Positions 12,260-30,285 of a DNA stretch of 64,000 bases are shown in pieces. The position numbers and the translations under genes were made by a program. Within the stretch, counting starts at the first letter, position 1; each line of letters opens with the position of its first letter. This DNA is from an uncultured virus (IMG/VR IMGVR_UViG_3300045996_000972). Lineage: Duplodnaviria; Heunggongvirae; Uroviricota; Caudoviricetes. The stretch lies in IMG/VR virus record IMGVR_UViG_3300045996_000972. The stretch is one strand, 5' to 3'. A model generated the notes under the pieces. The model was not told the origin of the DNA. It made no database searches and saw only the letters and a list, made by a program, of their open reading frames with translations.

Positions 12260-12304
12260 TTCTTTCTTTGGAAGCGTATGAGCAAACGCTAAACAAAGAA
12301 GGAA

Positions 12305-15300
12305 ATGCCTAATCAAAAGCTGATTCCGTTTAAGGGGGTTGATATTGTAAGTGATGAACTTTACACATCGGAAAACCATTCTCCATTCCTGAAAGACATT
12401 GACTATGATCTTAACAGGCAATCAGGAATAGAAGGGTTTAATATCGGCGCGTTCACACCACTACAAGGGAATGAGCCCTATTGCTCAATTACCTTACCCA
12501 TAGGCAACAATCACGTTATTGGAACCATACCTATCAAGGAGCTTAACCAGCTCCTTGTTTTGGTTCACAATTCGAATAACAACCACTTTGTTTATCGCCT
12601 CAACGGTGCTACCGGCCTGTGTCAGAAAGTTTCAGAAAGCTCTTGCTGGAATTTCACCTTGAAACCTGAAAACTTCATCAGCCCCACCCGGTATGCGGTC
12701 CAGGTGGTGTGCCGGTTTAACAAAGCAACCGGTAAGGAGGAGAAGATCCCATACGTGTTTTTCACCGACAACAATGATGATATAAAATTCTTTGTCCCGG
12801 ATGATCTGATCGCTACATCAAGCTATACAACCCCGTTCTTTTCGGTAAACGACACAACCTGCAAAAAATGCGACTGGTTCAAGTTGGGCGTTCCCACGCC
12901 AATGGATTGCATGACGATCACCAGTATCAAAAGAGATCTGACAGATCCGGACGAAAAGAGCAAGCCGAACCTTCTGGCATATAAAACATGGGAGTTCCGC
13001 CTGAAATATATTAACGTGTATGGTCAGGATAGCGAACACGGCGTTATAGCCACGCAATACATCGGCGTTACGGGCAATTCGTGTGTAGAGGCCAGCGATT
13101 CCCTTGCGCGATGCCTGAAGCTGAAATTCAAGGCCGGATGCCCCATAATAGACAAGATCCAAATCGAGTTCAGGAATTGCAGCGGGAAAGCCGACCAGTT
13201 CACCAAGCCCACCGATTGGTTTTTGTATGATACCATCGATGTTTATAACAACTGCGATGATGTTCAATGGTACGATCGCACCCGGAATAATCCATGGCAG
13301 AGCGAGGTTAATCGCCTGGTCGCTTTGGGGTCCACCGTTGCCGCCGCCGAAGCCGCCGCCACGAAGAAGCAATTGCTGAAATACAACAGCACAGACAACA
13401 CGTTCGAATACACTTTCTGCGGCAACAAGGAAAGGACGGCCATCCCGGTGGAGGAAACGAACCGTTCGTACAATCCAATACCTATCACTGCCGGAGCATT
13501 GTTTTCCATATACAAGAATATCGCTACGGCCAGACACAAAAGAGGCTTTAAGCCGATTGATTGTGACGAGTTGGAAAAAATTGATATCGTCGTTACCAAA
13601 CCACAGGCAGAGGATCCTTCATGCAAACTGAAGCTGCGGAAAATAACGGTCTACGGTATTATCTATAACCCGTTTGAGCAAGGCGCGGTAGAGATCCGGC
13701 GCGAGGACAATAAGAACCAGTTTGGATGGGCGGATTGCGCGAAGAACAATCCCATGGCCTACCAACAATATTTCCCGGATGATCAGGAGGGTTTTATCGG
13801 GTACCTGGCAGGAACGAAGCACTTTGCTGTATCAAAGCAGCACAGGTACACAATGTCTACTGGTGATATAGTATATCAGGGACTAGACTTTAACATTGAC
13901 GGCAACGTAGCATCGCGCCAGTATGCTATTCAAAAATGGGAGTTTGAGGTTTTGCCTGGGAAGTATGTTTTCCGTATCGCCAGCCATAAGGCAAAGCCCA
14001 CGGACGAGTACCAAAAGACCAGCACTTACACTTACGGCAGGACCTTTTTGAGCAACCCCGGATCAATATTCAATAACGATCGGGAGATTGTCGTTGACGT
14101 TACTTCCGCGGACGTGGAGATAAAAACCAATCCATTCATGATCTACGACCTTACCAGAAAAGGCAAGGGCTGTACGCTGGTGGATGCAACGTCTGTTGTG
14201 TGTGGTTATATCTACGAGGATCAGGACGAGTATTTGCCAATTGAAAGGGCCGTAGCGCGACCAAACAGGACCGGCCAGACACATTTCACCCAATACACGG
14301 ACCATAACGGGTTCTTTTTTGCCGCCGCACCTGTCAACAGGCTGCGCGTTGATATCCTGGGGCACAAAAACTGCGTGGCTTCGGTATTGCTGAAAGCGAG
14401 CAAGACCACGGCTGATGCCCCATTTGAGCGACACTTTGTTGAAGAAAAACTTTATGCATACGAGGGAACGGACGAATACAACCGGAAGGACCGGATAACC
14501 ATACGTGGCCGGGTTTTATTGTGCGAAGACAACACTATCGGCGTTGCCGGTGTTCTGGTGGTCCTGACGAACGGGGCTTTTGGGTACACCGATAATGACG
14601 GCGTTTTCGCGATCGTAGCGCATGACGACGGTAACGTACTGGCCAGGGCCGAACGGATCATCATTTCACAGCGCGGCAACTGCCAGATCGCAGGATGTAG
14701 CACCCCGGTGTGTAGCTACTCCTTTACGGACCTCAATGTGTTCTTCCCGACCTGTACCGGTTCGCTCACCCGGACGGTCAGCCTGGCCGACACACTGGTC
14801 AAAATACGCGGCCTCAACAAGCGCGGTCCAACCATGGGCGGACGCTACCAGCTTGGGATAAAAGTTCATGACTGGTTGGGACGGCACACCTACGTTCAGA
14901 CCCGGGAAAAGCACATCATTGATATTCCATCCCTGCAGGACACGCAAACGTTCGATTTCAGCACGATCGGGTTCACGATCAATAGTTCTATCCAATTACC
15001 GGCATACGCCCGGAAATTGAGCTTCTTTATCACAGAGAACCTCAACTTGGACGACTACCTGACTTGGGTGGCCGAAAGAATACAGTTGGTTGACAACAGT
15101 GGAGAGCCCAACAGCGCGGCACCCACGCAAATACGGCTGTATTACGAATCCTTGGGCGAATACAACAAGCTGCACAAATTCACCACCACTACCACTTGGC
15201 AGTTCATTGACGACAAGGAAGCGCCGGTTGCCGGCGACGAAGTGGAATTTCTGGCCAATGGCGACGGCACCATGTTCACCAAGGTGATCCGCGCGCTGGT

Positions 15301-16846
15301 CAAATACGATAAGGACGGGAGATATGTTCAGGTAGACTATTCGGACGAGCTGAAAGACCTGAAAGACGGAGCCCTGATACGCCTGATAAGGCCCAGGCAG
15401 GGAACAACCAAGCAGATATTCCATGAGCTATGCCCCATGATTGACGTGATCAACGGTGTACCCCAGGTATTGTCCGGGACATTCAATTTTTGGGACTCCT
15501 ACTTAATGAACCGGCAGCTTCCAGTCCCGGTGGCCAAGAAAAAGAAGAAGGATCCTGCAACCGGCAACGAAATCGAAACGGAGGAAAATATCAACCAGGT
15601 CAAGTCCTATCCGTTCCTGTTCGAGCACCACTCCCCTTCTGATTTTTGGGGTGATCATTGTTCCCCGAAAGGCAGGATCAATGTAAAAAATCCGCTGGAG
15701 AACGAGATATGTAACCTGACAGAAATAGCGGTGAGCAAGGCCATAGCCAACGATGGAATACTAAACGGGCTGCATTATTTCCGTGAAGAAGATATGATCG
15801 TTTTCGATGAAAACGAATGGGGTGGCATCACCGGGGTACTGGCAGAGCTGAACTATCTTTTGGTGATATGCGAACAGGACAACTTTGTTGTTGCGTTCAA
15901 TGATAACCAGATAAGGGTAGCACCAGACGGCCGCGTGATCGCGCCAAGCGCAGAAAATAGATTTGGCCGTCCAGAGAGGAAAATAGGCAACAACTACGGG
16001 TGCAAGCTGAAGGACGTGAATACCATCCAAAAGTATGATGGCATCACCATGTTTATCGATCGCACCAAGACCGCGCTGGTGCTGCATAATTTCAGCGAAG
16101 CAGTTGACGTATCAGTCAACAGCGTCAAAAGCTGGCTTGGCCACCAGATAAGAAGGGTTTCAGCAGACCCGGAGCTGTACTTCCACGGCTGCATCGATCC
16201 AAAAGCGAAAGACTACATTCTTACATCATTCCAGTTAAAGGGAAGCTACACGGATGCCGATTTCGTAAACACTGCAGATGTTCCAACAAACGGTAACGAT
16301 ACCATCGCGTATAACATTTACAGCAAGATTGTTAAGGGATGGAGATCATACACGCCGGAATACTACGGTATATTGGAAGGAGATCTAACGGATCAGCAGC
16401 TTATCGCTTTCAAGCAAGGAGCGGCATATAAGCACTACAACACTTCCGCGCCTTATGGCAGGTTCTTTGGCGTACAGTGCAAGCCATACATAAGTGTGAT
16501 TTCGAACATTGAGAATACCCGCGTGAAGCGATTCCTGTCAAACGAAGTATATATCGTCGGCGCGAAGTTCGAGGCAGTTGAAGTCGTGACAGAAGCGAAT
16601 CAATTAAGCCGGATAAAGCCAGTGTGGTGGGAGAAGTTCGACACCTTCCAGGCTGCGCCATTCCTGTGCGACCTGAACACTAAAGCGGATTTGAATATAC
16701 CGATCGATACTGGTGTCAATAAATTATTGGATGGCGATACTATGTACGGAAGATGGTTGAAGGTTAAATACACCGTACAGACACCAGACATTGGGAAATA
16801 TTTCGAGTTCACAGCCGTGGTCATAAACTTGATACCGGCAACGTAA
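12305..16846 (+). CDS. tail hub / stabilisation protein (crAss-like), 1513 aa
   Basis: Size and position; N-terminal PFKGVD..SD and C-terminal KRFLSNEV...DGDTMYGRWLKV resemble crAss-like stabilisation proteins. Confidence 0.6.
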   Translation: MPNQKLIPFKGVDIVSDELYTSENHSPFLKDIDYDLNRQSGIEGFNIGAFTPLQGNEPYCSITLPIGNNHVIGTIPIKELNQLLVLVHNSNNNHFVYRLNGATGLCQKVSESSCWNFTLKPENFISPTRYAVQVVCRFNKATGKEEKIPYVFFTDNNDDIKFFVPDDLIATSSYTTPFFSVNDTTCKKCDWFKLGVPTPMDCMTITSIKRDLTDPDEKSKPNLLAYKTWEFRLKYINVYGQDSEHGVIATQYIGVTGNSCVEASDSLARCLKLKFKAGCPIIDKIQIEFRNCSGKADQFTKPTDWFLYDTIDVYNNCDDVQWYDRTRNNPWQSEVNRLVALGSTVAAAEAAATKKQLLKYNSTDNTFEYTFCGNKERTAIPVEETNRSYNPIPITAGALFSIYKNIATARHKRGFKPIDCDELEKIDIVVTKPQAEDPSCKLKLRKITVYGIIYNPFEQGAVEIRREDNKNQFGWADCAKNNPMAYQQYFPDDQEGFIGYLAGTKHFAVSKQHRYTMSTGDIVYQGLDFNIDGNVASRQYAIQKWEFEVLPGKYVFRIASHKAKPTDEYQKTSTYTYGRTFLSNPGSIFNNDREIVVDVTSADVEIKTNPFMIYDLTRKGKGCTLVDATSVVCGYIYEDQDEYLPIERAVARPNRTGQTHFTQYTDHNGFFFAAAPVNRLRVDILGHKNCVASVLLKASKTTADAPFERHFVEEKLYAYEGTDEYNRKDRITIRGRVLLCEDNTIGVAGVLVVLTNGAFGYTDNDGVFAIVAHDDGNVLARAERIIISQRGNCQIAGCSTPVCSYSFTDLNVFFPTCTGSLTRTVSLADTLVKIRGLNKRGPTMGGRYQLGIKVHDWLGRHTYVQTREKHIIDIPSLQDTQTFDFSTIGFTINSSIQLPAYARKLSFFITENLNLDDYLTWVAERIQLVDNSGEPNSAAPTQIRLYYESLGEYNKLHKFTTTTTWQFIDDKEAPVAGDEVEFLANGDGTMFTKVIRALVKYDKDGRYVQVDYSDELKDLKDGALIRLIRPRQGTTKQIFHELCPMIDVINGVPQVLSGTFNFWDSYLMNRQLPVPVAKKKKKDPATGNEIETEENINQVKSYPFLFEHHSPSDFWGDHCSPKGRINVKNPLENEICNLTEIAVSKAIANDGILNGLHYFREEDMIVFDENEWGGITGVLAELNYLLVICEQDNFVVAFNDNQIRVAPDGRVIAPSAENRFGRPERKIGNNYGCKLKDVNTIQKYDGITMFIDRTKTALVLHNFSEAVDVSVNSVKSWLGHQIRRVSADPELYFHGCIDPKAKDYILTSFQLKGSYTDADFVNTADVPTNGNDTIAYNIYSKIVKGWRSYTPEYYGILEGDLTDQQLIAFKQGAAYKHYNTSAPYGRFFGVQCKPYISVISNIENTRVKRFLSNEVYIVGAKFEAVEVVTEANQLSRIKPVWWEKFDTFQAAPFLCDLNTKADLNIPIDTGVNKLLDGDTMYGRWLKVKYTVQTPDIGKYFEFTAVVINLIPAT

Positions 16847-16857
16847 GGCGAATCGAA

Positions 16858-17676
16858 TTATACTGTCAGCATTGAAAGTGAAATATCAGCATTTTCTTTT
16901 CTGACACCCATTGCTATTTGCCCTATACGAGCCAAGAAGTACTCCACGCCATCAATTTTCAGCGGATAGCCTTTGTAATCCATGTAGCCGTCAAAGAAAA
17001 CGTGATCACCGCCAGTCATTCCGCTAAACCTCTTGGCTGATGTTTCCGGGTGGATGAACGCCAGCTCCATGCGGTGGAATATCGGCTTATTCAGTTTATT
17101 GGTCAGCTTGGCTTGCTCATATTTCAATTCATTGATCTTACGAATATTGTCCTCACTGGCGATACCTTCAGCCAAAAACTTAACCTGGTTGTCGAGTTCT
17201 TCAATCCGGAGTCTCAATTCACTGTCGTCCTCATATTCACCTTCTCGCGGAATAAACAGTCCCGCTTTGCTTACATGCCAGCGGCCAGTATCCGGCAGAT
17301 CCTTGGTCCAAATGATTTCGCGGCTTGGAATAATCGTGCCATCCTGTTTTTTCACCCCAAGAACATCGTCAAAGGTGCACTCCACAATGCGGTCCTCCGA
17401 AATACAGTCGCCATCCTTCCAAACTTCATCAATGATCCTCCAATCATCATCCTCAACGGTATGGTGAAAAATCAGGGTGTCCCCTACATGGACTTCCGGG
17501 AACCACTGCCGGGCTTTCTCACCGATTTGCAGGACCGGGGCGGCCTGTAAATAGTGTTTCATATCAAGCATGGTGTCGGCCATTATAAGGCCCGGAATCA
17601 CTTCAGATAGAGCCCGTTGTTTCTTTTGAATGTCTTTGACTATACGGACAAGGAAGAATTGAGCATTGACGCGCAT
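16858..17676 (-). CDS. tandem GroES-like co-chaperonin
   Basis: Two GroES-like halves (VLQIGE...EVHVGDTLIF...DDVLGV; GDHVFF...LKIDGVEYFLARIGQIAM) joined by a coiled coil. Confidence 0.6.
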   Translation of the reverse strand: MRVNAQFFLVRIVKDIQKKQRALSEVIPGLIMADTMLDMKHYLQAAPVLQIGEKARQWFPEVHVGDTLIFHHTVEDDDWRIIDEVWKDGDCISEDRIVECTFDDVLGVKKQDGTIIPSREIIWTKDLPDTGRWHVSKAGLFIPREGEYEDDSELRLRIEELDNQVKFLAEGIASEDNIRKINELKYEQAKLTNKLNKPIFHRMELAFIHPETSAKRFSGMTGGDHVFFDGYMDYKGYPLKIDGVEYFLARIGQIAMGVRKENADISLSMLTV

Positions 17677-17740: not shown

Positions 17741-17748
17741 TAAATTTG
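17741..17748 (+). promoter_or_regulatory. Bacteroidota -7 element upstream of the lysis cassette
   Basis: TAAATTTG in the divergent intergenic region. Confidence 0.5.
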
Positions 17749-17766
17749 GGTTAAACATACCCCATC

Positions 17767-18099
17767 ATGAACATAGAAGTTACCGTTATCAAAAACGTGA
17801 ACGAGAACAATCGCTACACTCCCGATGGATGCAAGGCGATGGTCGATTGCAATTCAACAACAATTATCGGCAAAAGATACCTGGCCTCAACGGAGTTCAA
17901 CCAAGGATCCGTTAAGGACGTAAAGGAAGGTGACGAGGTTTCCGCTGACCATCTGGTGTCGAAAACCGAAGTCCTGAAAATTCACAACGAGAACAAGGGC
18001 ACACTCTACATTGAGGAAACTCAATCCGAGTTCATTGATCTCTGTCAGGCTTGTTGCATAGCAACAACCACGACGACTTCAACGACAACTGCCCCATAA
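17767..18099 (+). CDS. hypothetical protein with C-terminal poly-Thr tail
   Basis: Ends CQACCIATTTTTSTTTAP. Confidence 0.7.
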   Translation: MNIEVTVIKNVNENNRYTPDGCKAMVDCNSTTIIGKRYLASTEFNQGSVKDVKEGDEVSADHLVSKTEVLKIHNENKGTLYIEETQSEFIDLCQACCIATTTTTSTTTAP

Positions 18100-18134
18100 T
18101 ACCATTCGACACTCCCCTTTTTAACCCTAATTAA

Positions 18135-18395
18135 ATGAGTTACGATCTGGAACAGTTGAAGGACAATTATGAGAATATCGCCAAGGACGTTGCCGATATA
18201 AAGCAAGCTCTGCTTGGTAGTGAGTTCACCGAAGGACGGGGTATGATCTCTAAAGTGAATGATCACAGCAAGAGGCTATACAATATGGAAGCAAGGTTCT
18301 CCAACGGCAAATGGTTAGTGATAGGACTGGCCGCGGGTAGTGGCGTTGGTTTGGCCAGCATCATTCAGTGGATAGCCAAAGTAGTAGAAAAATGA
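18135..18395 (+). CDS. holin-like membrane protein
   Basis: Coiled coil plus C-terminal TM (WLVIGLAAGSGVGLASIIQWI); in the lysis cluster. Confidence 0.55.
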   Translation: MSYDLEQLKDNYENIAKDVADIKQALLGSEFTEGRGMISKVNDHSKRLYNMEARFSNGKWLVIGLAAGSGVGLASIIQWIAKVVEK

Positions 18396-18493
18396 GAAAC
18401 TACCTGTTGTATAGTGCCGCCTTGGCGACGCTTATTATAGCAGTCGGATTTTGTTTAATAGTAACAGTGATATTGACATGGAGCAAGCATTAG
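18392..18493 (+). CDS. 33-aa membrane peptide (not in ORF track)
   Basis: MRNYLLYSAALATLIIAVGFCLIVTVILTWSKH*; ATGA overlap upstream, overlaps ATG 18478 downstream. Confidence 0.55.
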   Translation: MRNYLLYSAALATLIIAVGFCLIVTVILTWSKH

Positions 18494-18855
18494 AAAAAGT
18501 ACAAAAGATCGGCCTTCTGGCGCTCACTGTTATAGCGGGGATCTATTTGCTTACGATGGCTTTCTCAAAGAGGCCGGACACCAGTACCGAACTGTTCAAG
18601 CTGATCGGAGAGCAATATGAGGAAAGATTGAAAGCGGGAGCCCAAGAGCGTGAAGCATTGGCCAGGGAGATTAAAAGCTACGAAGCACTGGAGGCGCAAT
18701 TGAACAAACGCGATTCTGTTTTGATCCTGAAAATAAATCAGTACCAAGGCGAGATCAAGAAAATACACCGGGAGTATGAAGCACTTAATCGTTTTGACAA
18801 TTACAATTCTGCTGACATTATCAGGTTTTTCAGGGATAGCCTCTATTCCAAATGA
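18478..18855 (+). CDS. i-spanin-like protein (N-terminal TM + coiled coil)
   Basis: IGLLALTVIAGIYLL TM followed by heptad-rich region. Confidence 0.55.
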   Translation: MEQALEKVQKIGLLALTVIAGIYLLTMAFSKRPDTSTELFKLIGEQYEERLKAGAQEREALAREIKSYEALEAQLNKRDSVLILKINQYQGEIKKIHREYEALNRFDNYNSADIIRFFRDSLYSK

Positions 18856-19219
18856 TGATGATAGCACGACCTGTCTTTCCAACAGCGAATTGCGTCAAGC
18901 AATAAAACTGATCGAAGAAGGAAAGCTGGTAAAAAAGGAGCTGGCCATCACAAGGCTGGTAGTCGCTGACCAAGCGAGAAGAATTGAAGTCAAAGATTCC
19001 GCCATTCATATTCTCCACAAAAAAGATACTGCCTGGCAGCTTATGGTTATAAGCTATCAGGACGCGATAAAAATACTTCGCGAAAAGGACCAGCTTCAGA
19101 TGCAATTTATCGGCAAACTGGAGAAGGACTTAAAGCGAGGGAAAAGAAAAACGTTGTTCACTCAAATAATTGCGGGGGTAATAACGATCGGGGCTGTTGT
19201 ATGGGCTATAACAAAATAA
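18776..19219 (+). CDS. spanin-like protein (signal peptide, coiled coil, C-terminal TM)
   Basis: Overlaps the 3' end of the previous gene; MKHLIVLTITILLTLSG signal; IIAGVITIGAVVWAI TM. Confidence 0.55.
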   Translation: MKHLIVLTITILLTLSGFSGIASIPNDDDSTTCLSNSELRQAIKLIEEGKLVKKELAITRLVVADQARRIEVKDSAIHILHKKDTAWQLMVISYQDAIKILREKDQLQMQFIGKLEKDLKRGKRKTLFTQIIAGVITIGAVVWAITK

Positions 19220-19224
19220 CCACC

Positions 19225-19467
19225 ATGGTAAAAGCATTCTTAAAAAAGCTGTTCTCTGCAGATGGAGAAATCTCATCCAAGCGAGTGGTGGGCTTTTTGG
19301 CATTCATGCTCATTTTTGAAATTGTACAATACTATTTGTTCAAACTCAACAGCATCCCGGAATTTATGTTTTGGGGCATTATCACACTGGTGGGAGCTTG
19401 CTTCGGCCTGAACGCCCTTATTGATATGAAGAAAAAAGAGCCTACTAACCCAAACAATAACGAATGA
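19225..19467 (+). CDS. holin (two TM helices)
   Basis: GEISSKRVVGFLAF... with two TMs; ATGA-coupled to the endolysin. Confidence 0.65.
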   Translation: MVKAFLKKLFSADGEISSKRVVGFLAFMLIFEIVQYYLFKLNSIPEFMFWGIITLVGACFGLNALIDMKKKEPTNPNNNE

Positions 19468-19994
19468 TATTCATTTCAGCCGGCCATCATAATCAGGACC
19501 CAGGAGCATCGGGCAAAGGGACCACCGAAGCAGCGCAGACAAAGATCATGCGTGACAAAATTGTCGCAGAGCTCCAAAAATTAGGGTGCAAGTTTATTAC
19601 AGACAACGACAATGAAACCCTGTCCCAATACCTGAAAAGGATTGAAACCGGATCTGGAAGCGTCGTTCTTGAATTACACTTCGACGCATTCAATAAAATA
19701 GCTACCGGATCTACCGCGCTTATGGCCGATGATGCAACAGCCGAAAGCAAGGCTTTTTCGGCTGAATTGGTGGCCACCACTGCCAAAGTGCTAGGAATAC
19801 CCAACCGAGGAGCGAAAGGGGAAGGAGAGTCGAACAGGGGCCGCCTGGGCTTGATGCGTGAACATGGCACCGTTTGTTTGCTGGAAGTGTGTTTTATCGA
19901 CAACGAAAACGATATGCAGAAGTACTACCTGCACAGGGATGAATTGGCCGTGGAGCTGGCCAAGATCATCAAGAAGTACGAGGACTTGAAATAA
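19464..19994 (+). CDS. endolysin, N-acetylmuramoyl-L-alanine amidase (Amidase_3)
   Basis: ISAGH..DPGA..TE, ELHFDA, LLEVCFIDN..D zinc-amidase motifs. Confidence 0.9.
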   Translation: MIFISAGHHNQDPGASGKGTTEAAQTKIMRDKIVAELQKLGCKFITDNDNETLSQYLKRIETGSGSVVLELHFDAFNKIATGSTALMADDATAESKAFSAELVATTAKVLGIPNRGAKGEGESNRGRLGLMREHGTVCLLEVCFIDNENDMQKYYLHRDELAVELAKIIKKYEDLK

Positions 19995-20054
19995 TCTTTG
20001 TTTGCTCATACGCCTCCCCAGGGAGTGGAAGGGAAACCGACCGCTCCCATTTTT
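19995..20054 (+). ncRNA. candidate 3'UTR-derived small RNA C with terminator
   Basis: Seed TCTTTGTTTGCTCATACGCCTCC (19995-20017) then hairpin GGGAGTGG...CCGCTCCC plus T tract. Confidence 0.4.
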
Positions 20055-20069
20055 AAAACAAAAAGGTAA

Positions 20070-22427
20070 ATGCTAACGGAACTTGAATATTTAGAAACAA
20101 ATCCTAATAAGAAAGATGCCGCATGGGCAGACAAACTTATTACGAATTTCCGTCAGCACTGGCAGCCTCTTGTTTCCGAAAAAACGGCGAAGGAGAACAT
20201 GGAATTACTGCTTGGTAAGACGGATATGGATTTCGTAAAGAATATGTTCAAAAATCCAGAAAAGTCCGGATTGTCATTCGTGGCTCTTTTGGTTATTGAA
20301 AAGTTTCGAAATATCCTGATCGCGGAGAGGGACAAAGCGGGGGTTTCCCTTGGGCTGAATAGCATCGATCCTACGGTACTTGATTCCTTCCGTAAAAGAG
20401 ATCGATCGCTTTTATCTAATCGCAAGACGATCGAGGGACTGCTTTCTACACTAAGCGCCAAAATTGGCGATCCTCCATTCAAAATGAAGACCGAACTGTT
20501 TAATGGTAACATTGACAGTTTTGACGAAATAGGGCTGAACGACGAGGAAGATGAAGATCTCAACTACTTCTTCGCGACACACTGGCGACTGTTGCAGGAA
20601 ATAAAAGGCGAGATCGTCTTAAATCATTTCGTGTCTCACAACAAGGTTGCCGGTAATATTGGACGCTGGTGCAATGATATCCTGGCAAAAAAGGCCATAG
20701 CCTATCAGGTGTTCGTAAATCAGCAAACCGGAGCGATAGAGGGTAAATATCTTGCCCCGGAGCAAGTCAAAGCGATATGGGGCGACAACTTGGATTTTCA
20801 GGACGCACCATGTATCGGCTTCGAGAAAAACGTGACTGTTGCGCAACTTTTGAAATATCTCGGTAACGAGTTTGACCCCGAAATCCATTATAAGGATTTG
20901 ATGTATGCTATTAATAGCCTACACGCGAAAACATACACCGGCCTGGAAGCGGCCAGCGGGGCAGTTCTCTGGAAGGATGCGGGTGTAATAGACGGATCAA
21001 AGAATTTGACATCATTAAGTTGGACTTCCTTCTTGAATTACAAACTCACCTTGGGCTATATCGAGTTCAAAAGCCCCGATGCTACAGCATACAAGAAAGG
21101 GAAAAGCGTTCACGGTAACGCAAAAATGTTTCAGCTAGAGAATACTGAAGCAGAAGTGCGATCAGAATACTACACAAAAGAGACGTTCTTTAACGAGGTC
21201 ACATATAAGGCATACTTTATCCCGACCAGTTCACAGACGCAACGCATCTTCCGGTTTGGAAAATTATTTCATCAGACCATAGAGGGCGGAGAAGATGAAT
21301 ATGCGAACTATTCAATTTGCGCATATAAGGAGGTCGGACCGACCGCGGTTGATGTTATCAAGCCCTACGTTTCGATGATCCAGCAAGCATGGACCAAGTT
21401 CGAGTGGATGGTCCGCAAGGCAAAACCCCGAGGACGCACGTATAATTATGAGGCACTGGTGCAGATAGCCGCCAATATGGTGAAGGAGGGCAATAATGCA
21501 TCAAAGGTCAACGCATTAATGGCCACATTCGAGGACGGCATCAATGATATCTACACCATCCCTACCGTAAGAGGCGAAAGGGTTGGCGGCGGACAAAACC
21601 CGTATTTTGATAAACCCAACGGCTTGGACGCAACGGCTAAAGAATTTTTGGATGTTCTTACATTCTGCCATGAAAAATTAGCCAGTGATCTTGGCGTAAA
21701 CGCTATACGTGAGGCGTATTCTCCGGATCCTAACGATGGGTACAAGTTACAGATGGCCGCCCTGCAGCAGTCGCGCAATGCCACCGAATATATGTCCCAA
21801 ATGATCCTGAAGCTCCTGCATCACGCCGGCACCCAGGTCATGTTAATGACACAGGATATTATCAAATTCAAATCGACACTTCCGTACAAGTGGCTGATCA
21901 GCGCAGTTGGCGACGATACCGTTAAAGCCCTTCAGCAGTGCAAGTACGCACATCACCGAATGGGAATATTCGTTGACACGTTTAACCGGGACTACGAGAG
22001 AGAAGAAGTTAAACAGCTTACCCAAAAGGCTTTCCTTGAAGGGAAACTGGACTACGCGCAGTACATGCTGATCCAGGCAGTTGATAGCCCAAGCAAAGCC
22101 GGGATGATACTGGCGTTTGAGACGCGCAGACAAGAAAAGATCAAGCAGAAAGATGCCGAGAAAGCTCATGAATATGCTCTTGCGCAACAGAAGGCCAAGA
22201 CGCAAGGAGAAATGGCTATTATCGATCAGAAGGGTAAATGGGACGTTGAGGGCAAAAACGTGGAAGGTGAATGGTACTATAAAGCTCACAAAGAAACCGC
22301 CGATGCGTCTATTAAGAAGAAACAAATGGACTTGGAAGGTGCCGAGAATAAAGTTGAGAATAAGAAAGAGGCAGATATTGAAACAGAAACTCACAAGAAG
22401 AACTTAGAGCATCAATCACCGCTTTAA
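20070..22427 (+). CDS. portal protein (crAss-like)
   Basis: 785 aa; position before scaffold/MCP; LGVNAIREAYSPDP...GLQ-like...SRNATEY segment; C-terminal coiled coil. Confidence 0.75.
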   Translation: MLTELEYLETNPNKKDAAWADKLITNFRQHWQPLVSEKTAKENMELLLGKTDMDFVKNMFKNPEKSGLSFVALLVIEKFRNILIAERDKAGVSLGLNSIDPTVLDSFRKRDRSLLSNRKTIEGLLSTLSAKIGDPPFKMKTELFNGNIDSFDEIGLNDEEDEDLNYFFATHWRLLQEIKGEIVLNHFVSHNKVAGNIGRWCNDILAKKAIAYQVFVNQQTGAIEGKYLAPEQVKAIWGDNLDFQDAPCIGFEKNVTVAQLLKYLGNEFDPEIHYKDLMYAINSLHAKTYTGLEAASGAVLWKDAGVIDGSKNLTSLSWTSFLNYKLTLGYIEFKSPDATAYKKGKSVHGNAKMFQLENTEAEVRSEYYTKETFFNEVTYKAYFIPTSSQTQRIFRFGKLFHQTIEGGEDEYANYSICAYKEVGPTAVDVIKPYVSMIQQAWTKFEWMVRKAKPRGRTYNYEALVQIAANMVKEGNNASKVNALMATFEDGINDIYTIPTVRGERVGGGQNPYFDKPNGLDATAKEFLDVLTFCHEKLASDLGVNAIREAYSPDPNDGYKLQMAALQQSRNATEYMSQMILKLLHHAGTQVMLMTQDIIKFKSTLPYKWLISAVGDDTVKALQQCKYAHHRMGIFVDTFNRDYEREEVKQLTQKAFLEGKLDYAQYMLIQAVDSPSKAGMILAFETRRQEKIKQKDAEKAHEYALAQQKAKTQGEMAIIDQKGKWDVEGKNVEGEWYYKAHKETADASIKKKQMDLEGAENKVENKKEADIETETHKKNLEHQSPL

Positions 22428-22703
22428 TTCTTTTAGAGTAGGGAAGATAACGTGTTTTTCCACCAACCTGGCGACGCTTATCCCCTCATTATCTGCCATG
22501 GCTTTTAAGTTTTCTTCAATATCGGGAGGAATATCATAGCCTTTTTTAATCTTTTGGCATTTCCCGTCACACTTGCGCTCAACCTCTTTTTTTGCAAGTT
22601 TGACGATGCCACGGAGAACGAGAGAAGATATGCCGCCTTTGGGCTTGTATTCGTTGTCGAGGGTGTTATAATCGTCCTGACAGTATTCGAGGAAAATTAT
22701 CAT
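22416..22703 (-). CDS. small ribbon-helix-helix-like DNA-binding protein
   Basis: YDIPPDIEENLKAMADNEGISVARLVEKHV; own minus-strand TATGTTTG box at 22736-22729. Confidence 0.55.
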   Translation of the reverse strand: MIIFLEYCQDDYNTLDNEYKPKGGISSLVLRGIVKLAKKEVERKCDGKCQKIKKGYDIPPDIEENLKAMADNEGISVARLVEKHVIFPTLKELKR

Positions 22704-22784
22704 ATCTAATCAGATGGGGAATGTTTCTCAAACATACAATCTTTTTTAAGGAAAGAGCAAAATTTGTATAAACACTTTATTCGT

Positions 22785-23828
22785 ATGAGTACATCACACG
22801 CTGAACAAATGTTGGAACAGTCTGCAAGGGAGAGGCAGCCTGCAACAACACAGCCCGAAACCACGCAGCCTGCTACAACGCAGCCGCAGCCGGAGACTAC
22901 GCAGCCACCCACGACCCAACCACAGACCACGCAGCCCGAAACCACGCAGCCAGTAAACGATGATGCAGATCTCATTGCCAAGCTGAAGGAGAGGGGTATC
23001 AATGTGGATAAATTGGACGATCTCAAAAAACCAATCCACAAGGAGCCTACCGAGGAAGAAAAGAAAGAGGCGGACAAAAAGAAAAAGGAAGAGGCCCTGA
23101 AGTACGGACTGGATCAAAAGCTCTATTCGAAAGAAGACTATGATTCCTATGTGCTGGATGCAGCAAAGCCGGCCACAGACATTGCGTTTCAACTTTTCAA
23201 GGATAATTTTTTAGCCGAAATCAAAGGCACAAGCGAGGAAGGTTCTTTCACTGACGAGGATATCAAGGAAGAATTTAATCAGGCTTACAACCTCACCGCC
23301 AACGAAGATTCCGCTAAAAGGAAATTGGGAGAAAAAGCGATTCAGAAGGTGGCCGACAGCTACCTAAAGGATAAGTATGGCAAGATCCTATCTGTTGACG
23401 ACAAGTACACCTCTTTTCAGACAGAACTGGTTAAGGCTGGTCAATACAAGGAAGTAGTTGACAAAGCCTTTGGTTCATTGCCTGAAAAGATCACGTACAA
23501 AGTTGACGGCATTGATGTGGATTTCAAGCTAACGCCGGAAATCGTGGACCAGGTGAAAGCAGTGTATTACGACCCGAAAGCCTACAGGGCATTTGGAAAG
23601 GAAGCCACTGCCGAAAACCTTGTTCAAGCTATCCAAAAAACGATTAGCACAACCGCTTTAGAGCAGCTCATTACAGAAGTTGCCCAAGGCTATCACGCAA
23701 CACAGTTGGCAAACCTCAAATTAGGAAGACAAGGTATTCTTCCTGAAAGAGACAACGGAACTGCAGGTAGCGGGAGTGGTGGTACTAAACATGCTGATGC
23801 CATGCTGGATAACACGAAAGGAAAGTAA
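22785..23828 (+). CDS. capsid scaffolding-like protein with N-terminal TTQP repeats
   Basis: Charged, helical; lies between portal and MCP. Confidence 0.65.
   Translation: MSTSHAEQMLEQSARERQPATTQPETTQPATTQPQPETTQPPTTQPQTTQPETTQPVNDDADLIAKLKERGINVDKLDDLKKPIHKEPTEEEKKEADKKKKEEALKYGLDQKLYSKEDYDSYVLDAAKPATDIAFQLFKDNFLAEIKGTSEEGSFTDEDIKEEFNQAYNLTANEDSAKRKLGEKAIQKVADSYLKDKYGKILSVDDKYTSFQTELVKAGQYKEVVDKAFGSLPEKITYKVDGIDVDFKLTPEIVDQVKAVYYDPKAYRAFGKEATAENLVQAIQKTISTTALEQLITEVAQGYHATQLANLKLGRQGILPERDNGTAGSGSGGTKHADAMLDNTKGK
22836..22952 (+). repeat. degenerate 15-nt coding tandem repeat (QPxTT)
   Basis: QPATTQPETTQPATTQPQPETTQPPTTQPQTTQPETTQP. Confidence 0.9.
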
Positions 23829-25333: not shown

Positions 25334-25341
25334 TCAAATCG

Positions 25342-25372
25342 GGCGGGAAGGCCGTAACCTTCCTGCCTTTTT
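25342..25372 (+). terminator. intrinsic terminator after MCP
   Basis: GGCGGGAAGG-CCGTAA-CCTTCCTGCC-TTTTT. Confidence 0.8.
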
Positions 25373-25397
25373 ATAAAACCTCCCCCAAACAAAGCGT

Positions 25398-26312
25398 ATG
25401 TCCAAAGAGCAAACAAAGACAAGCAGCGTGAAAGAGCCAAAAGTTCGTGTTTTCGAGCTGGTGGATCAGCAAAATTCATCCTATAAACTGGAAGGTACAG
25501 AAGACGTGTACCTAACATCACCCCTACACCGGGTAATTCCAAGCCAGTCCATTTACGTGGACGAAGCTGGCAAACATCACAGGATCCGTTTCATCAAAGG
25601 TTGCCAAACAATCTTTGTTGATGAACAAACGAAAACCGGATGGGAGCCAAGCAAAACAGGTGCCGATGCGATTGTATTTACTACCGGGAAACTGGTGGCG
25701 ACAGAAGAAGGAGATTTCATTCAAATGTTCGAGTTCTTAGACAAGACCACCCTGAACGAATCACCTTCCAGCGGTCAACGCAAATCCGGTTCAACTATCA
25801 TCTTCCGGGAGATCATTAAAGAAGTCGAGGTCAAAAAAGAGCTTGATAACTTCTTCTCCCAAAAGGCGGTTTACGATGCGCTTGGAACCATTGCAATACC
25901 TGACGGAAAAGGCGGAATACAGTACAAGAAGGAGAAAATCGACAGCCTTTGTACGTTATTCGGTCTTGCTGGATTCGAGGCAGATGCTTATGCTGAAAAG
26001 TTGCAAGCGCTGATCGGGTTTGGTCTTGCCAGGCCGGAATCGTTCATCCATTCAATAGCAAATACACTGGCTGAAAAGCGTGTGCTTGTTCTTGGTGGAC
26101 TGGAAAATGGTGTTTTAGGATGGGATAAGCAAAGCCTGATGTTCATGGATGGCGGGAAGGTTCTGATTACAGCGGAAAGCAAGGACAAGGACCAGAAAAT
26201 TCAGGAAGCGGTTGAGTACCTCCTGTCCGCAGAAGGATTCACCGATCTGCAACAACTGGAAATTGCGGTGAAACACGCGAACGAGAAGAAGCTGCTTGCT
26301 TCTACAACGTAA
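25398..26312 (+). CDS. head-module hypothetical protein
   Basis: ORF after MCP; RIRFIKGCQTIFVDEQ...IVFTTGKL resembles the post-MCP gene of crAss-like Bacteroidota phages. Confidence 0.6.
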   Translation: MSKEQTKTSSVKEPKVRVFELVDQQNSSYKLEGTEDVYLTSPLHRVIPSQSIYVDEAGKHHRIRFIKGCQTIFVDEQTKTGWEPSKTGADAIVFTTGKLVATEEGDFIQMFEFLDKTTLNESPSSGQRKSGSTIIFREIIKEVEVKKELDNFFSQKAVYDALGTIAIPDGKGGIQYKKEKIDSLCTLFGLAGFEADAYAEKLQALIGFGLARPESFIHSIANTLAEKRVLVLGGLENGVLGWDKQSLMFMDGGKVLITAESKDKDQKIQEAVEYLLSAEGFTDLQQLEIAVKHANEKKLLASTT

Positions 26313-26356
26313 GAGCAAACGACAAACCAATTTATATCATTTCTTAATTCATAAAA

Positions 26357-27348: not shown

Positions 27349-30204
27349 ATGACAACTGGTTCAAGCCTTATACCGGAGTTTATCATAGAATCGCTTTTTG
27401 ACCTCACAACAACACCTAAGCTGGTTCTGACAAACAAGTCAACAGGAACACAGATCGGTTGTTCGTTCGTCTTTGAGCTACATTCTCCCCACGGATCACC
27501 CATTCATATCGGCACGTTTACCACACCGGACGCATCCGGAGCCTGGACCGACTACACTTTCAGCGAATCCATGCCAGTGGCGTTGGGTTCAATGGAGTTT
27601 GGAACGTACCGGCTTATATGCAAGGTGAATGATGGAACCGACGAGTATTCTTTCGAAAGGAAAATCAACGTAAAAAGACCAGCCGGGAATAAAACCGGAT
27701 CAGGGCACAACTACGGCGCGGGATCTCTTTACAGCCAGGTGAAATGCCATGTTTCTAAAATTTACACTGAAGATCGCAGCGATTATAGCTACAACGGTAT
27801 TACCGGCGATCTGGTATCGCGTAAAATATCCATTCAACCACCGGCTGACAGCACCGGGGTTATCCCACCAGCCACATCGGTATTAGGGTACCAGGCTATT
27901 TCATTCAAAATCCCCTACAACGGCAAGGACTACACGTTATTCCTTGACACCATAATGAGCTATCAGCTCGAAACGTACTCTTATGTAAAAGTCAAATACA
28001 AGGCAAAAGTCTGCTTTGACGTTTTATGTAATGTTGATCTCTGTAAGCTGCTTTGCGAAATCTCAAATTTTGAGGAAAAGGTTCTTTGCAACCCAACGAA
28101 GGAAGACTTGCAGAAATTAACAGCCATTTCCTCCAAAATGACAAGGGTGCTGATCGGCATTACGCAGCCAAGTTGCGATGTTGATGTCACTGCAATCCTG
28201 AAGGAGATCATTGATATCGGCGGATTTGATTGCGCTTGCCTGGACAACACTTGTACAGGGTTGGGCGTTGACACTTGTTGCCCTGAAATTTTGGATGTAA
28301 CCATTTCTTCCGGTGTTACCACGACCACGCAGCTTGTAACTACCACTCAACCCACGACAACATTGGCGACCTGCCCCACACCTCTGAATTTGAGATTAGT
28401 TTCTCAAAACCACTCAAACGGAGAAACCTGCGTTGAGTGGGACACTTTGGTTACTACGAATATCACCGCGCTGAAACTGTATTACGGAAATTCCGCGAAC
28501 AGTTTATCTCAATTTGTAACAGTGCCTAAAGCGAACACTGTTCATTGCGTACTATTGGACCTCCCGCTTACAAAAATGTATTTCAGGCTGGAAGTAGAGT
28601 GCAGCGGATCCTTCACTTACTCAAATCTGGTATTGGTTGATCCTGCCGTAACAATCGGGACTAGCACCACTACCAGTACGACCACCACAACGACGACAAC
28701 GCAGCCGCCGAATTGTATTCTTTACGAGCTGTCAAACCCGGGAGCAACGGATGATAATATTTCATACACGAATTGCAGCGGTGTGCCAACGTCGGGAGTT
28801 CTGGAAGCTGGCGACACGATCCAAATATGCGCAGCAGAAGGCACTGTAATAACAAGCGGTTCAATAGGTGTGGCAGCAATCGGATATTGCGGTGGCGGAA
28901 CCACAACTACGCCGACAACCCAGGAAGCAACGACAACTTCCACAACCACCACCACGACCACTACAACAACAACAGCACCGAACTGTGTGCTGTACCTTGT
29001 AAATAATGATACCGGAAACGGAGATCAGGTCACCTATGTAGATTGTACTGGTGCAGAACAATCAGTGATGGTTTATGCAGGAGAGCAAGCGAAGGTTTGC
29101 GCTTACGAGGGATCACTTTCCGCGACTGTTTCCACTGTTACGATTATTGGCTATTGCGCCGGAGGAACGACCACGCAGCCTACGACTACACAGCCGACGA
29201 CGACTGCAGCTTGCGCCGATTACACGATCGAGAACAATTCTGGTGATGCGCAGGATTACGAATACACCGATTGCCAGGGCAACGTGCACACTGGTTCAAT
29301 TCCTGACGGAGAATCACTTTCGATATGCGTATTGGGCGGAAGCACAATCACTGCACCAGATTGCACGATCACCGGAAATGGAGCTTGTACGACCACAACG
29401 ACCACCACAACGACCACCACGACTACTACAACGACCACCACGACTACGCAGCCGGTTTGTAGCTCGCCTAAGTTCACATTTGAGGTAGACGCTCCGGATA
29501 ATGACGAGGTGGCCTTTACGCTTAACTTCTGGACTGGTCAAGGCGTTATTGTAGATTGGGGCGACGGTAATGTTCAGGCATTCGCATCAGCAATTCAGCA
29601 CGATCTTACGCACACATACGCAGGGGTATATCCTAAAACGGTTAGCGTATGTTTTGACGATTCTGCTGACCTAGCAGGTGTGAGATTGTTCAAGCTGTCT
29701 GATCCTTCGCATAACAATGGTGCAACAGTTGTAAGCAATCTTAGTTCATTCATTAATATGACAGAATTTAGCGCAAGGCGGAACAAGCTCACGGCAATAC
29801 CGACACTTGGAACATCCGTACAGTACTTGACGCTTTCGTTTAATGAATTAACATCGGTAGACAATTTGCCAAACTCAATCGGTTATCTCGCCGTTGACAA
29901 TAACACAAATTTGGTGAACATCATTTCCTTGCCGAGTTCTCTGCAAAGTTTCATGGCGAACAATTCCGCGATCGTTGCGCTTTGCACAATGCCGGTGCCA
30001 AGCAAGTATGTGAACCTTTCCGGAAACGAATTACCTGTAGCCGAGGTGAACCAGGTGCTCGTAGACTTAGCAAACAACGGGCAAACATCAGGGTATCCTT
30101 CAGCAAATCTTAGCAGCCAAACACCGGCAGCACCTCCAAGTGGAGCTGGTGCAACAGCTAAGGCATCACTGATCGCATCCGGATGGTCTGTTAACACTGA
30201 TTAA
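27349..30204 (+). CDS. mucin-like multidomain virion protein: poly-Thr linkers, FN3-like domain, three Cys-rich modules, PKD-like and LRR domains
   Basis: Thr runs up to about 20 residues; CPTPLNL...VEWD...FRLEVEC; VDWGDG; NKLTAIPTL/NELTSVDNL LRRs. Confidence 0.75.
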   Translation: MTTGSSLIPEFIIESLFDLTTTPKLVLTNKSTGTQIGCSFVFELHSPHGSPIHIGTFTTPDASGAWTDYTFSESMPVALGSMEFGTYRLICKVNDGTDEYSFERKINVKRPAGNKTGSGHNYGAGSLYSQVKCHVSKIYTEDRSDYSYNGITGDLVSRKISIQPPADSTGVIPPATSVLGYQAISFKIPYNGKDYTLFLDTIMSYQLETYSYVKVKYKAKVCFDVLCNVDLCKLLCEISNFEEKVLCNPTKEDLQKLTAISSKMTRVLIGITQPSCDVDVTAILKEIIDIGGFDCACLDNTCTGLGVDTCCPEILDVTISSGVTTTTQLVTTTQPTTTLATCPTPLNLRLVSQNHSNGETCVEWDTLVTTNITALKLYYGNSANSLSQFVTVPKANTVHCVLLDLPLTKMYFRLEVECSGSFTYSNLVLVDPAVTIGTSTTTSTTTTTTTTQPPNCILYELSNPGATDDNISYTNCSGVPTSGVLEAGDTIQICAAEGTVITSGSIGVAAIGYCGGGTTTTPTTQEATTTSTTTTTTTTTTTAPNCVLYLVNNDTGNGDQVTYVDCTGAEQSVMVYAGEQAKVCAYEGSLSATVSTVTIIGYCAGGTTTQPTTTQPTTTAACADYTIENNSGDAQDYEYTDCQGNVHTGSIPDGESLSICVLGGSTITAPDCTITGNGACTTTTTTTTTTTTTTTTTTTTQPVCSSPKFTFEVDAPDNDEVAFTLNFWTGQGVIVDWGDGNVQAFASAIQHDLTHTYAGVYPKTVSVCFDDSADLAGVRLFKLSDPSHNNGATVVSNLSSFINMTEFSARRNKLTAIPTLGTSVQYLTLSFNELTSVDNLPNSIGYLAVDNNTNLVNIISLPSSLQSFMANNSAIVALCTMPVPSKYVNLSGNELPVAEVNQVLVDLANNGQTSGYPSANLSSQTPAAPPSGAGATAKASLIASGWSVNTD

Positions 30205-30233
30205 TAACAACAACCAGAAAATAAACCGAGGCC

Positions 30234-30261
30234 GGGGAGCTACCGATGCAGGTAGCTCCCC
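30234..30261 (+). other. perfect 11-bp stem-loop upstream of the glycosyltransferase
   Basis: GGGGAGCTACC-GATGCA-GGTAGCTCCCC. Confidence 0.8.
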
Positions 30262-30285
30262 ATTTCGGGGGAGAGCAAACAAAGT

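Follow-up and report, generated by a model that had tools for sequence, protein, structure and literature searches.

What is the role of a short, structured sequence lying directly after the endolysin gene of an uncultured soil phage, when it is complementary to a motif that recurs where several other genes of this phage begin? The sequence occupies positions 19995-20069 of the plus strand in a stretch of 64,000 nucleotides (nt) from the IMG/VR record IMGVR_UViG_3300045996_000972 (Caudoviricetes), and this whole stretch is referred to here as the window. An earlier note on this DNA had proposed that 19995-20054 yields a trans-acting RNA, made from the lysis transcript, which represses or tunes morphogenesis genes. 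We found that the complementarity of the first 23 nt to start regions is non-random, that a hairpin favored on the plus strand follows directly, and that part of the sequence is kept in one relative. The reading we prefer, at a probability of roughly 0.38, is an RNA-level anti-leader element at the 3′ end of the lysis operon, where the lysin and portal genes meet; the mechanism of the earlier note is plausible and partly supported, and it is unproven.

The endolysin-portal junction

The element and the two genes that flank it, whose products are given with their length in amino acids (aa) where needed, are as follows.

19464..19994, plus strand: endolysin (N-acetylmuramoyl-L-alanine amidase, Amidase_3; phrog_435, 2.5e-39; PF01520, 1.4e-18)
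19995..20017, plus strand: anti-leader block (the seed), beginning directly after the endolysin stop
20003..20019, plus strand: conserved core TGCTCATACGCCTCCCC, kept in the related locus L009 as TGCTCATACA-CTCCCCC
20021..20048, plus strand: terminator-like hairpin, GGGAGUGG / CCGCUCCC plus two inner pairs, by fold prediction
20049..20054, plus strand: AUUUUU tract after the hairpin, read from the sequence
20056..20062, plus strand: portal-leader sequence AAACAAA, the predicted partner of UUUGUUU at 19997-20003 in the minimum free energy fold of 19995-20069
20070..22427, plus strand: putative portal, 785 aa, starting 15 nt after the U tract

The endolysin is the final gene before the element (stop codon TAA, 19992-19994), and the block lies, as the earlier note had it, in the 3′ untranslated end of the lysis genes directly before a terminator-like hairpin of the plus strand. 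The strings and coordinates given there for the block and its start-region matches were all correct, and the match at 26313 proved to be even longer. The reverse complement of 19995-20017 is GGAGGCGTATGAGCAAACAAAGA, at which GGAGG, CGTATG, AGCAAAC and AAAGA are all contiguous. The same sequence was identified in two soil metagenome runs from two studies, and the contigs of these runs are identical across the element, with no variants and no strand-change joint.

On the plus strand, the hairpin at 20021-20048 showed a predicted energy of -20.4 kcal/mol (z -2.35), which 5 of 200 shuffles equaled, whereas on the minus strand it is not favored (z +0.07); it contains G-U pairs and thus forms on the plus strand only. 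The GC-rich stem and the directly following U tract are sequence features of an intrinsic terminator, although a terminator scan with a loop limit of 8 nt left this hairpin, which has a longer loop, unlisted. Rfam gave zero matches at the gathering score in the whole window, and zero at E up to 1 in 19900-20150.

The host is probably a member of the Bacteroidota, with the Chitinophagaceae as one lead, since the best genomic relative of the portal sits in a contig binned with a Terrimonas metagenome-assembled genome (MAG). We searched for TAnnTTTG, the -7 promoter element of this phylum. No plus-strand match was found near the portal start, and none at the 3′ end of the endolysin gene, where TAATCTTTG carries one extra base; a sigma-70-type promoter was likewise not found in the spacer before the portal. 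With no such match to serve the portal, the hairpin must often be read through.

The 75-nt spacer (19995-20069) is open in the endolysin frame for 24 codons, ending in a TAA at 20067-20069 that abuts the portal ATG. Read-through of the endolysin stop into the spacer was considered and rejected, the open frame being probably due to chance; the spacer in L009 is 80 nt.

A sense leader motif with one inverted copy

The sense motif family, (A)GAGCAAAC..AAAG and GTATG(A/G)GC, is found on the plus strand in the start regions of a subset of genes. GAGCAAA has 14 copies, 12 on the plus and 2 on the minus strand; half of the plus copies (6/12) fall within -50 to +10 of the starts at 12305, 22785, 25398, 26357, 30286 and 57118, while a seventh lies in an intergenic spacer. 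GTATGAG has 8 copies, 5 of them at gene boundaries, where its ATG is either the real start (22785, 30286 and 33381) or the start of a 4-codon upstream open reading frame (uORF) at 12278. The only inverted copy at a boundary is 19995-20017, in which all the sub-blocks are contiguous, while the sense copies match subsets of them.

This family is larger than expected by chance. The pattern GAGCAAAC-N0-7-AAAG, searched as GAGCAAACN{0,7}AAAG, gave 5 matches vs 0.11 expected, a number reached in none of 100 shuffles, and 4 of the 5 copies stand at gene boundaries. With up to 3 mismatches allowed, GCGTATGAGCAAAC gave 15 matches vs 5.5 (0 of 100 shuffles reach 15). Strong terminator-like hairpins are also present at 25341-25368 and 30233-30260, after the genes of a 491-aa and a 951-aa protein, with the sense leader motif 10-40 nt beyond them.

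A motif that repeats at gene boundaries could also be a DNA site, and the earlier note had named a strand-independent protein-binding motif as its alternative. Such a site (motif GCGTATGAGCAAACAAAG) would be read in either orientation by a phage regulator, for which the candidate is a 95-aa protein encoded on the minus strand at 22416-22703, between the portal and the next gene. CTCCC..GGGAG dyads lie beside the motif at 20014-20025 and 30256-30273, the second (CTCCCC..GGGGGAG) resembling the first. The 95-aa gene, which may encode a small regulator, has its own -7-type match (TATGTTTG, 22729-22736) and a minus-strand open reading frame (ORF) at the corresponding place in the related locus L004. 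Its product shows a HicB-family match; however, this match and the DNA-binding assignment that goes with it are sub-threshold (E 0.035, 14.5 bits vs a cutoff of 21). The distance to the AUG also varies from -44 to +9 and the sub-blocks are split by 7-nt insertions, unlike a fixed protein site, and no promoter-type matches were found at the motif junctions. Since the sense copies are biased to the plus strand and bulges are tolerated, the RNA-level reading is favored over a protein site on DNA, which we regard as quite improbable.

Complementarity to start regions

The block's reverse complement is matched at 17 of 18 positions by 12270-12287 (GGAAGCGTATGAGCAAAC), and the 12-mer GAGCAAACAAAG is present exactly at three places, 19996 (minus strand), 25407 and 30273. 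Across ATG 25398, the sequence at 25394-25419 reads GCGTATG+TCCAAAG+AGCAAACAAAGA. GAGCAAAC at 26313-26320 widens to a match over 26307-26320 with 2 mismatches in 14, and CGTATGAG, at 22782 and 33378, covers ATG 22785 and ATG 33381. The candidate target sites with the strongest predicted pairing are listed below with the cofold gain (kcal/mol), the value for shuffles and the number of shuffles that did as well.

12270-12287 + 12295-12299, plus strand: leader site of gene 12305; -8.9 vs -4.4 ± 1.7, 1/100
19190..19215, plus strand: first-start site of the putative holin, ATG 19201; -17.7 vs -10.3 ± 2.7, 0/100
25394..25419, plus strand: site across ATG 25398; -19.6 vs -6.8 ± 2.5, 0/100
26307..26320, plus strand: site ACGTAAGAGCAAAC; -12.8 vs -4.6 ± 1.8, 0/100
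30267..30284, plus strand: site GGGGGA + GAGCAAACAAAG; -21.6 vs -11.2 ± 2.7, 0/100

The site at 30267-30284 stops 1 nt short of ATG 30286 and is unpaired in the local fold, while that at 26307-26320 overlies the stop of gene 25398-26312 and lies 37-50 nt before ATG 26357. The context of ATG 19201 is a variant, GTATGGGC. Matched sub-blocks are separated by insertions of 7 nt at 12288 and 7 nt at 25401, and the pairing at 30286 has a 5-7-nt bulge on the seed side.

These sites were not expected by chance. An all-against-all comparison of inverted 10-mers over 2,759 intergenic and flanking bases gave 16 pairs vs a null mean of 4.5 (0 of 200 shuffles), and 19995-20013 takes part in 12 of the 16. 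Against 37 start regions, the 23-mer seed reached a best duplex of -29.1 kcal/mol, which none of 500 shuffled seeds attained (-18.0 ± 2.05), and 4 of its 10 best sites among 2,994 plus-strand windows are at most 40 nt from a start codon. When the costs of opening local structure were included, 5 of 12 start regions (25398, 30286, 19201, 26357 and 12305) showed gains between -9 and -22 kcal/mol that no more than 1 in 100 shuffles equaled. Two gene labels of the earlier note were not borne out. The product of 12305-16846, called a tail hub, has no Pfam family and no PHROGs support, and that of 30286-31215, called a glycosyltransferase, has no Pfam family and matches only phrog_4417, of unknown function.

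The match between 12270-12287 and the block is also an inverted repeat, and might have arisen as the ends of an inverton, in which a recombinase flips the 7.7-kb block between two 18-bp arms (12270-12287 and 20000-20017) that holds the 1513-aa gene, a minus-strand gene and the lysis cassette. Over the whole window, 3 inverted 18-mer pairs with at most 1 mismatch were found and shuffles (n=10) gave 0-6, so there is no excess; the 12270/20000 pair is, nevertheless, the sole one of the 3 with both arms in intergenic sequence (~3% of the total), and the minus-strand gene (16858-17676) does lie inside the block. However, no recombinase domain was detected among the proteins scanned in or beside it. 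The right arm is in its present orientation in contigs of the two soil runs (X1 record 3 and X2 record 12) and the left arm is covered by X2 record 9, with no strand-changing joint among contigs, which drop rare forms. Flipping would, moreover, presumably give no sensible junctions for either the lysis genes or the 1513-aa gene. We consider an inverton to be very improbable.

Conservation in related phages

We gathered 23 loci. The highest identity of a portal homologue was 65% when part of the protein was covered and 59% for the full-length protein, and the closest protein relatives (P0001-P0007) had 53-65% portal identity. Only two loci, L009 (56% portal identity) and L007 (60%, with a different lysin), have a lysin-portal spacer bearing a hairpin; in the other loci examined, the spacer is short, missing or without such a hairpin. 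The hairpins of L009 (z -2.84) and L007 (z -4.45) stand at the same place with other sequence, and both are weaker on the minus strand.

L009 is the sole relative with the same lysin, and here only TGCTCATAC.C.TCCCC is conserved, an unrelated A/T-rich sequence standing in place of TCTTTGTT. The core is missing from L007, and also from L023 and the remaining relatives, which have no spacer here. L023, the one distant contig that a search of a genome collection yielded, is 46 kb long, belongs to the Terrimonas MAG and has 44% portal identity; it has no lysin-portal spacer, and nothing comparable to the inverted leader copy was found in this contig, for which the gene calls are crude.

L004, a contig of the L009 metagenome, bears the remainder of a portal, and its next gene starts with TATGAGCAC, a 9-nt match to the L009 block. 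The predicted pairing of the L009 core with this start is -14.2 vs -5.6 ± 2.0 kcal/mol (0 of 1000 shuffles), and the corresponding pair of the window, the block with the gene after the portal, gave -14.3 (p 0.02). Cross-pairings are equally good, and therefore it is conservation and not compensation that is seen: one orthologous predicted pair is kept, with no compensatory change, in the one relative (1/1) that could be aligned.

Wider searches added no close relative. Protein-pattern scans of IMG/VR with the portal, the portal alignment and P0007 gave no relatives, and a scan with the conserved 17-nt pattern gave 7 matches, mostly unrelated coding or start sequence, none of them related by tblastn. 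An order-level genome search matched 2 of 401 genomes, neither of them close, and by blastn no deposited phage record had a nucleotide match to 18000-23000.

What L009 keeps also bears on the minus strand. The block could be a start of translation there (GGGGAGG-CGT-ATG-AGC-AAA, GTATGAGC type), opening a 72-aa ORF from 20009 down to 19791, or could stand at the head of a transcript antisense to the 3′ end of the endolysin gene. As a parallel, an antisense RNA linked to an endolysin gene is reported in phage PAK_P4 (PMC12197685). Both the ATG and GGGGAG are kept in L009, the block is identical at 17 of 18 positions to the uORF start at 12270-12287, a -7-type sequence (TAAGTTTG) lies on the minus strand at 20132-20139, and 3 of the 7 unrelated viral contigs with the 17-nt pattern have an opposite-strand ORF of at least 55 aa from the ATG. 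On the other hand, the ORF of 72 aa shrinks to 23 aa in L009 and is wholly antisense within the amidase domain. Its start scores -6.4 and ranks 1,433 of 2,045 ATGs by a generic start-site profile, itself a weak discriminator, and resembles only the GTATGAG subset. No minus-strand -7 match was found in the stretches searched around the L009 and L007 spacers, the hairpin is not favored on this strand, and the leaders of this phage are without Shine-Dalgarno sequences, which Bacteroidota use little. A start or transcript on the minus strand is thus improbable in our view.

Leader folds at gene 12305 and at the portal

12260..12304, plus strand: leader of gene 12305 (1513 aa), an 11-bp stem (12260-12270/12294-12304) ending at the AUG

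This leader is predicted to fold at -19.6 kcal/mol (z -3.67), which none of 200 shuffles equaled, and a 4-codon uORF, MSKR (AUG 12278, UAA 12290), is located within its inner hairpin loop. From the modeled fold, it looks like a leader in which translation is controlled by the uORF or by coupling. The 13-mer GTATGAGCAAACG of 12276-12288 recurs at 43703-43715, out of frame in a 5204-aa ORF, where it opens a 6-codon mini-ORF.

A weaker version of the same layout is predicted before the portal, at which the UUUGUUU/AAACAAA helix closes around the hairpin. The longest Watson-Crick run between spacer and portal leader is 7 in the window (p 0.04), 6 in L009 (p 0.07) and 7 in L007 (p 0.0065), with arm windows that were chosen post hoc. 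Complementarity to the portal leader is therefore present in all three phages through differing sequences, and the 5′ third of the seed is better explained by this helix in cis.

Perhaps the junction is nothing more than such a structure, built like the leader of gene 12305 from a U-rich arm after a stop codon, an inner hairpin and an A-rich leader arm reaching the AUG, which together would set read-through, mRNA stability and translational coupling of the portal. The complementarity in trans would then be a by-product, coming from likeness among A-rich leaders and from a flipped shared ancestry of the middle part with the loop of 12260-12304; small inversions of hairpin loops are known. The arms of the two structures are indeed alike directly (TCTTTGTTTG vs TCTTTCTTTG after the stops and AAACAAAAAGGTAAATGC vs AAACAAAGAAGGAAATGC before the AUGs), and the 12305 leader is a strong start-sequestering hairpin. 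That the closing helix is kept in three phages with differing sequence, that the 5′ part of the seed is unconserved in sequence and that no promoter match precedes the portal itself all fit this explanation. However, isolated closing helices are weak (-1.7 to -4.9 kcal/mol), and the explanation does not account for the conservation of GCTCATAC.C.TCCCC in L009, for the complementarity of the core to starts in a GTATGAG context in both phages, or for the exact 12-mer common to 25407 and 30273. A role in cis only is on the whole unlikely, although it is a serious contender.

A proposed RNA-level anti-leader element

The anti-leader reading would combine these parts as follows. The plus-strand hairpin and short U tract (20021-20054) would end or pause transcripts and protect their 3′ ends. 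The 23-26 nt before the hairpin, the complement of the leader motif family, would base-pair as RNA with start regions. In a weak arm in cis, UUUGUUU would pair with AAACAAA just before the portal AUG and form a helix around the hairpin. In a long-range or trans arm, either a 3′ fragment of ~60 nt would be released or ribosomes finishing the endolysin would expose the block, and its partners would be the uORF of gene 12305, the putative holin at its first start (19201), the starts at 25398 and 30286 and the leader of 26357. Pairing would occlude ribosome entry, and translation would thus be tuned. A stable RNA species, its pairing in vivo and the direction of its effect are inferred, and a repression that couples lysis to assembly, as the earlier note had it, is conjecture.

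A bolder version appears doubtful to us, namely that in this phage, taken to be lytic, the ~60-nt RNA acts as a phage-internal translational governor, its single-stranded 5′ part complementing the leader/AUG motif of at least 5 of the phage's own genes. Such an RNA would cover the first holin start 0.8 kb upstream, thereby setting the lysis clock, together with the starts of several virion genes, and would do so in a host phylum that is not known to have Hfq and is largely without Shine-Dalgarno pairing.

Several observations weigh against an anti-leader element. L009 does not keep the 5′ third of the seed (TCTTTGTTT), the element is missing from relatives at 46% portal identity or less, and the comparative support comes from one relative, with L004 and L009 assumed to be one genome. 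Half of the tested start regions (6/12), including 22785 and 33381, which the earlier note had counted among the matches, are non-significant, and 57744 is borderline (4/100). GC-rich intergenic 23-mers, among them terminator stems, reach a summed energy of -74.6 vs -76.4 for the seed, and several internal sites score -24 to -27 kcal/mol. With up to 1 mismatch, the 12-mer gave 3 matches where 0.68 were expected, a number also attained in 3 of 100 shuffles. The mismatches to the sites at 12270 and 26307 are C-A and A-A, which do not wobble, and part of the match at 25398 is constrained coding sequence (KEQTK), the L023 ortholog beginning MTKEQ. A hairpin that is often read through suits an intercistronic structure no less than the terminator of a small RNA (sRNA).

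The availability of the block counts on both sides. In the 60-nt RNA, it is mostly free (mean unpaired probability 0.86), whereas in longer transcripts it is mostly paired (unpaired 0.20-0.29 in contexts of 115-355 nt) with the final 60 nt of the endolysin reading frame, and its exposure would therefore need processing or ribosome transit. A conserved function for this hairpin of the block with the end of the endolysin ORF was also considered and rejected (p 0.04 in the window, p 0.7 in L009, and likewise not significant in L007). Thus the trans-acting RNA of the earlier note gains from the excess complementarity, the plus-strand bias, the free block of the short RNA and the core kept in the one alignable relative, and loses from the unconserved 5′ third and the pairing within longer mRNAs.

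Lysis genes and genomic setting

Between 1056 and 61042, nearly all long ORFs of the window use the plus strand, among them those of 2377, 1513 and 5204 aa, and no tRNA genes were found in the window. The features upstream of the endolysin that concern the element are the following.

17741..17748, plus strand: -7-type promoter match TAAATTTG, 19 nt upstream of ATG 17767, where the lysis cassette's first gene starts
19201-19467, plus strand: 88-aa protein with two hydrophobic segments, putative holin, its stop overlapping the endolysin start

The match at 17741 is one of the three plus-strand intergenic TAnnTTTG matches within the window. It precedes a run of small genes (17767-19467) that ends in the endolysin and of which several products have hydrophobic segments; together with the endolysin, these presumably form a lysis cassette. 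The 88-aa protein is a putative holin, judging from its hydrophobic segments and position. It has two in-frame starts, ATG 19201 and ATG 19225, and the latter is among the best-scoring unannotated starts by the start-site profile (score 7.1). The pair could be a dual-start arrangement of holin and antiholin.

The portal assignment is based on 22% identity (E 4e-5) to the annotated portal of Flavobacterium phage NC_055854.1; neither the portal profile nor the 491-aa protein had a sequence match in PDB. In the crAss-like phage phi14:2, promoter motifs are reported upstream of portal genes.

Elsewhere in the window, 38508-54122 is a single ORF of 5204 aa, and two further ORFs (1001 and 741 aa) follow it on the same strand. 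The 741-aa ORF had no Pfam match, and all Pfam matches of the 1001-aa ORF, to helix-hairpin-helix families, were sub-threshold. The giant 5204-aa product may be reminiscent of the virion RNA polymerases that crAss-like phages carry. Imperfect ACGACCAC/CAGCC repeat families are present at 22827-22966, 28321-29464 and 31550-32058, where they encode Thr/Pro/Gln-rich tracts in genes 22785, 27349 and 31269. At these repeats the soil-run contigs vary in length; the variants are a gap of 3 bases at 23071, an additional ACG at 29181 and a skip of 445 bases between 28965 and 29411.

Comparison with known systems

Intrinsic terminators and 3′ stabilizing hairpins between phage late genes share with this element a strand-specific GC-rich stem and a U tract directly after a stop codon, a design also seen in the window at 25341-25368 and 30233-30260. 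The element differs by its U tract of 5 nt and by a conserved single-stranded 5′ flank, which terminators need not have. Termination would be partial, because the next essential gene begins 15 nt on without a promoter match.

Start-sequestering hairpins and translational coupling are known from T4 e and soc and from MS2. As in these, a U-rich arm after a stop pairs with the following gene's A-rich leader, strongly in the predicted fold of 12260-12304 and weakly in that of 19997-20003/20056-20062. The helix at the portal, however, would be of 7 A-U-rich pairs enclosing a terminator-like hairpin, and the conserved core is left unexplained. In the lambda S gene, the choice between two starts is controlled by the sdi structure, which is local and upstream of S. 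The putative holin here likewise has two in-frame starts (19201/19225), with an RNA element predicted over the first, but the partner would be 0.8 kb downstream at the operon end, and both the holin identity and the use of two starts are putative.

Enterobacteria have sRNAs that derive from 3′ untranslated regions, such as CpxQ. DicF, from the dicB operon of the Qin prophage, is an operon-derived base-pairing small RNA (PMC12197685). Similar to DicF-type sRNAs, the candidate would be an RNA of an operon end with a pairing region, then a terminator-like hairpin, and several start-region targets. It differs in having no sequence or Rfam relation to them and in that the genes it is predicted to target, late and lysis genes, belong to the phage itself and not to the host. 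The c4 RNA controls one immunity operon and is cut from a leader upstream of its target. This antisense RNA of phages P1 and P7 is likewise named in PMC12197685. Both c4 and the candidate are encoded on the strand of their targets without overlapping them, and both would pair with ribosome-binding regions by short separated blocks. The block here is at the operon 3′ end with several dispersed candidate targets, and there is no homology between the two.

Significance

Most known phage RNAs that act by pairing come from enterobacterial prophages and have host genes as their targets, and post-transcriptional control of the late program in phages of Bacteroidota, whose hosts initiate translation without Shine-Dalgarno pairing, is essentially unexplored. 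Even if no pairing takes place, the locus provides a record, for a soil phage that is uncultured, of a leader motif with a set orientation and of junction hairpins that sequester starts. If the anti-leader reading is true, it would provide a compact and testable case of one RNA coordinating lysis and virion genes, and a functional handle on the (A)GAGCAAAC/GTATGAG leader motif in translation initiation of the phylum. It would also offer a rule by which further elements may be searched for, namely a lone inverted copy of a leader motif beside a terminator.

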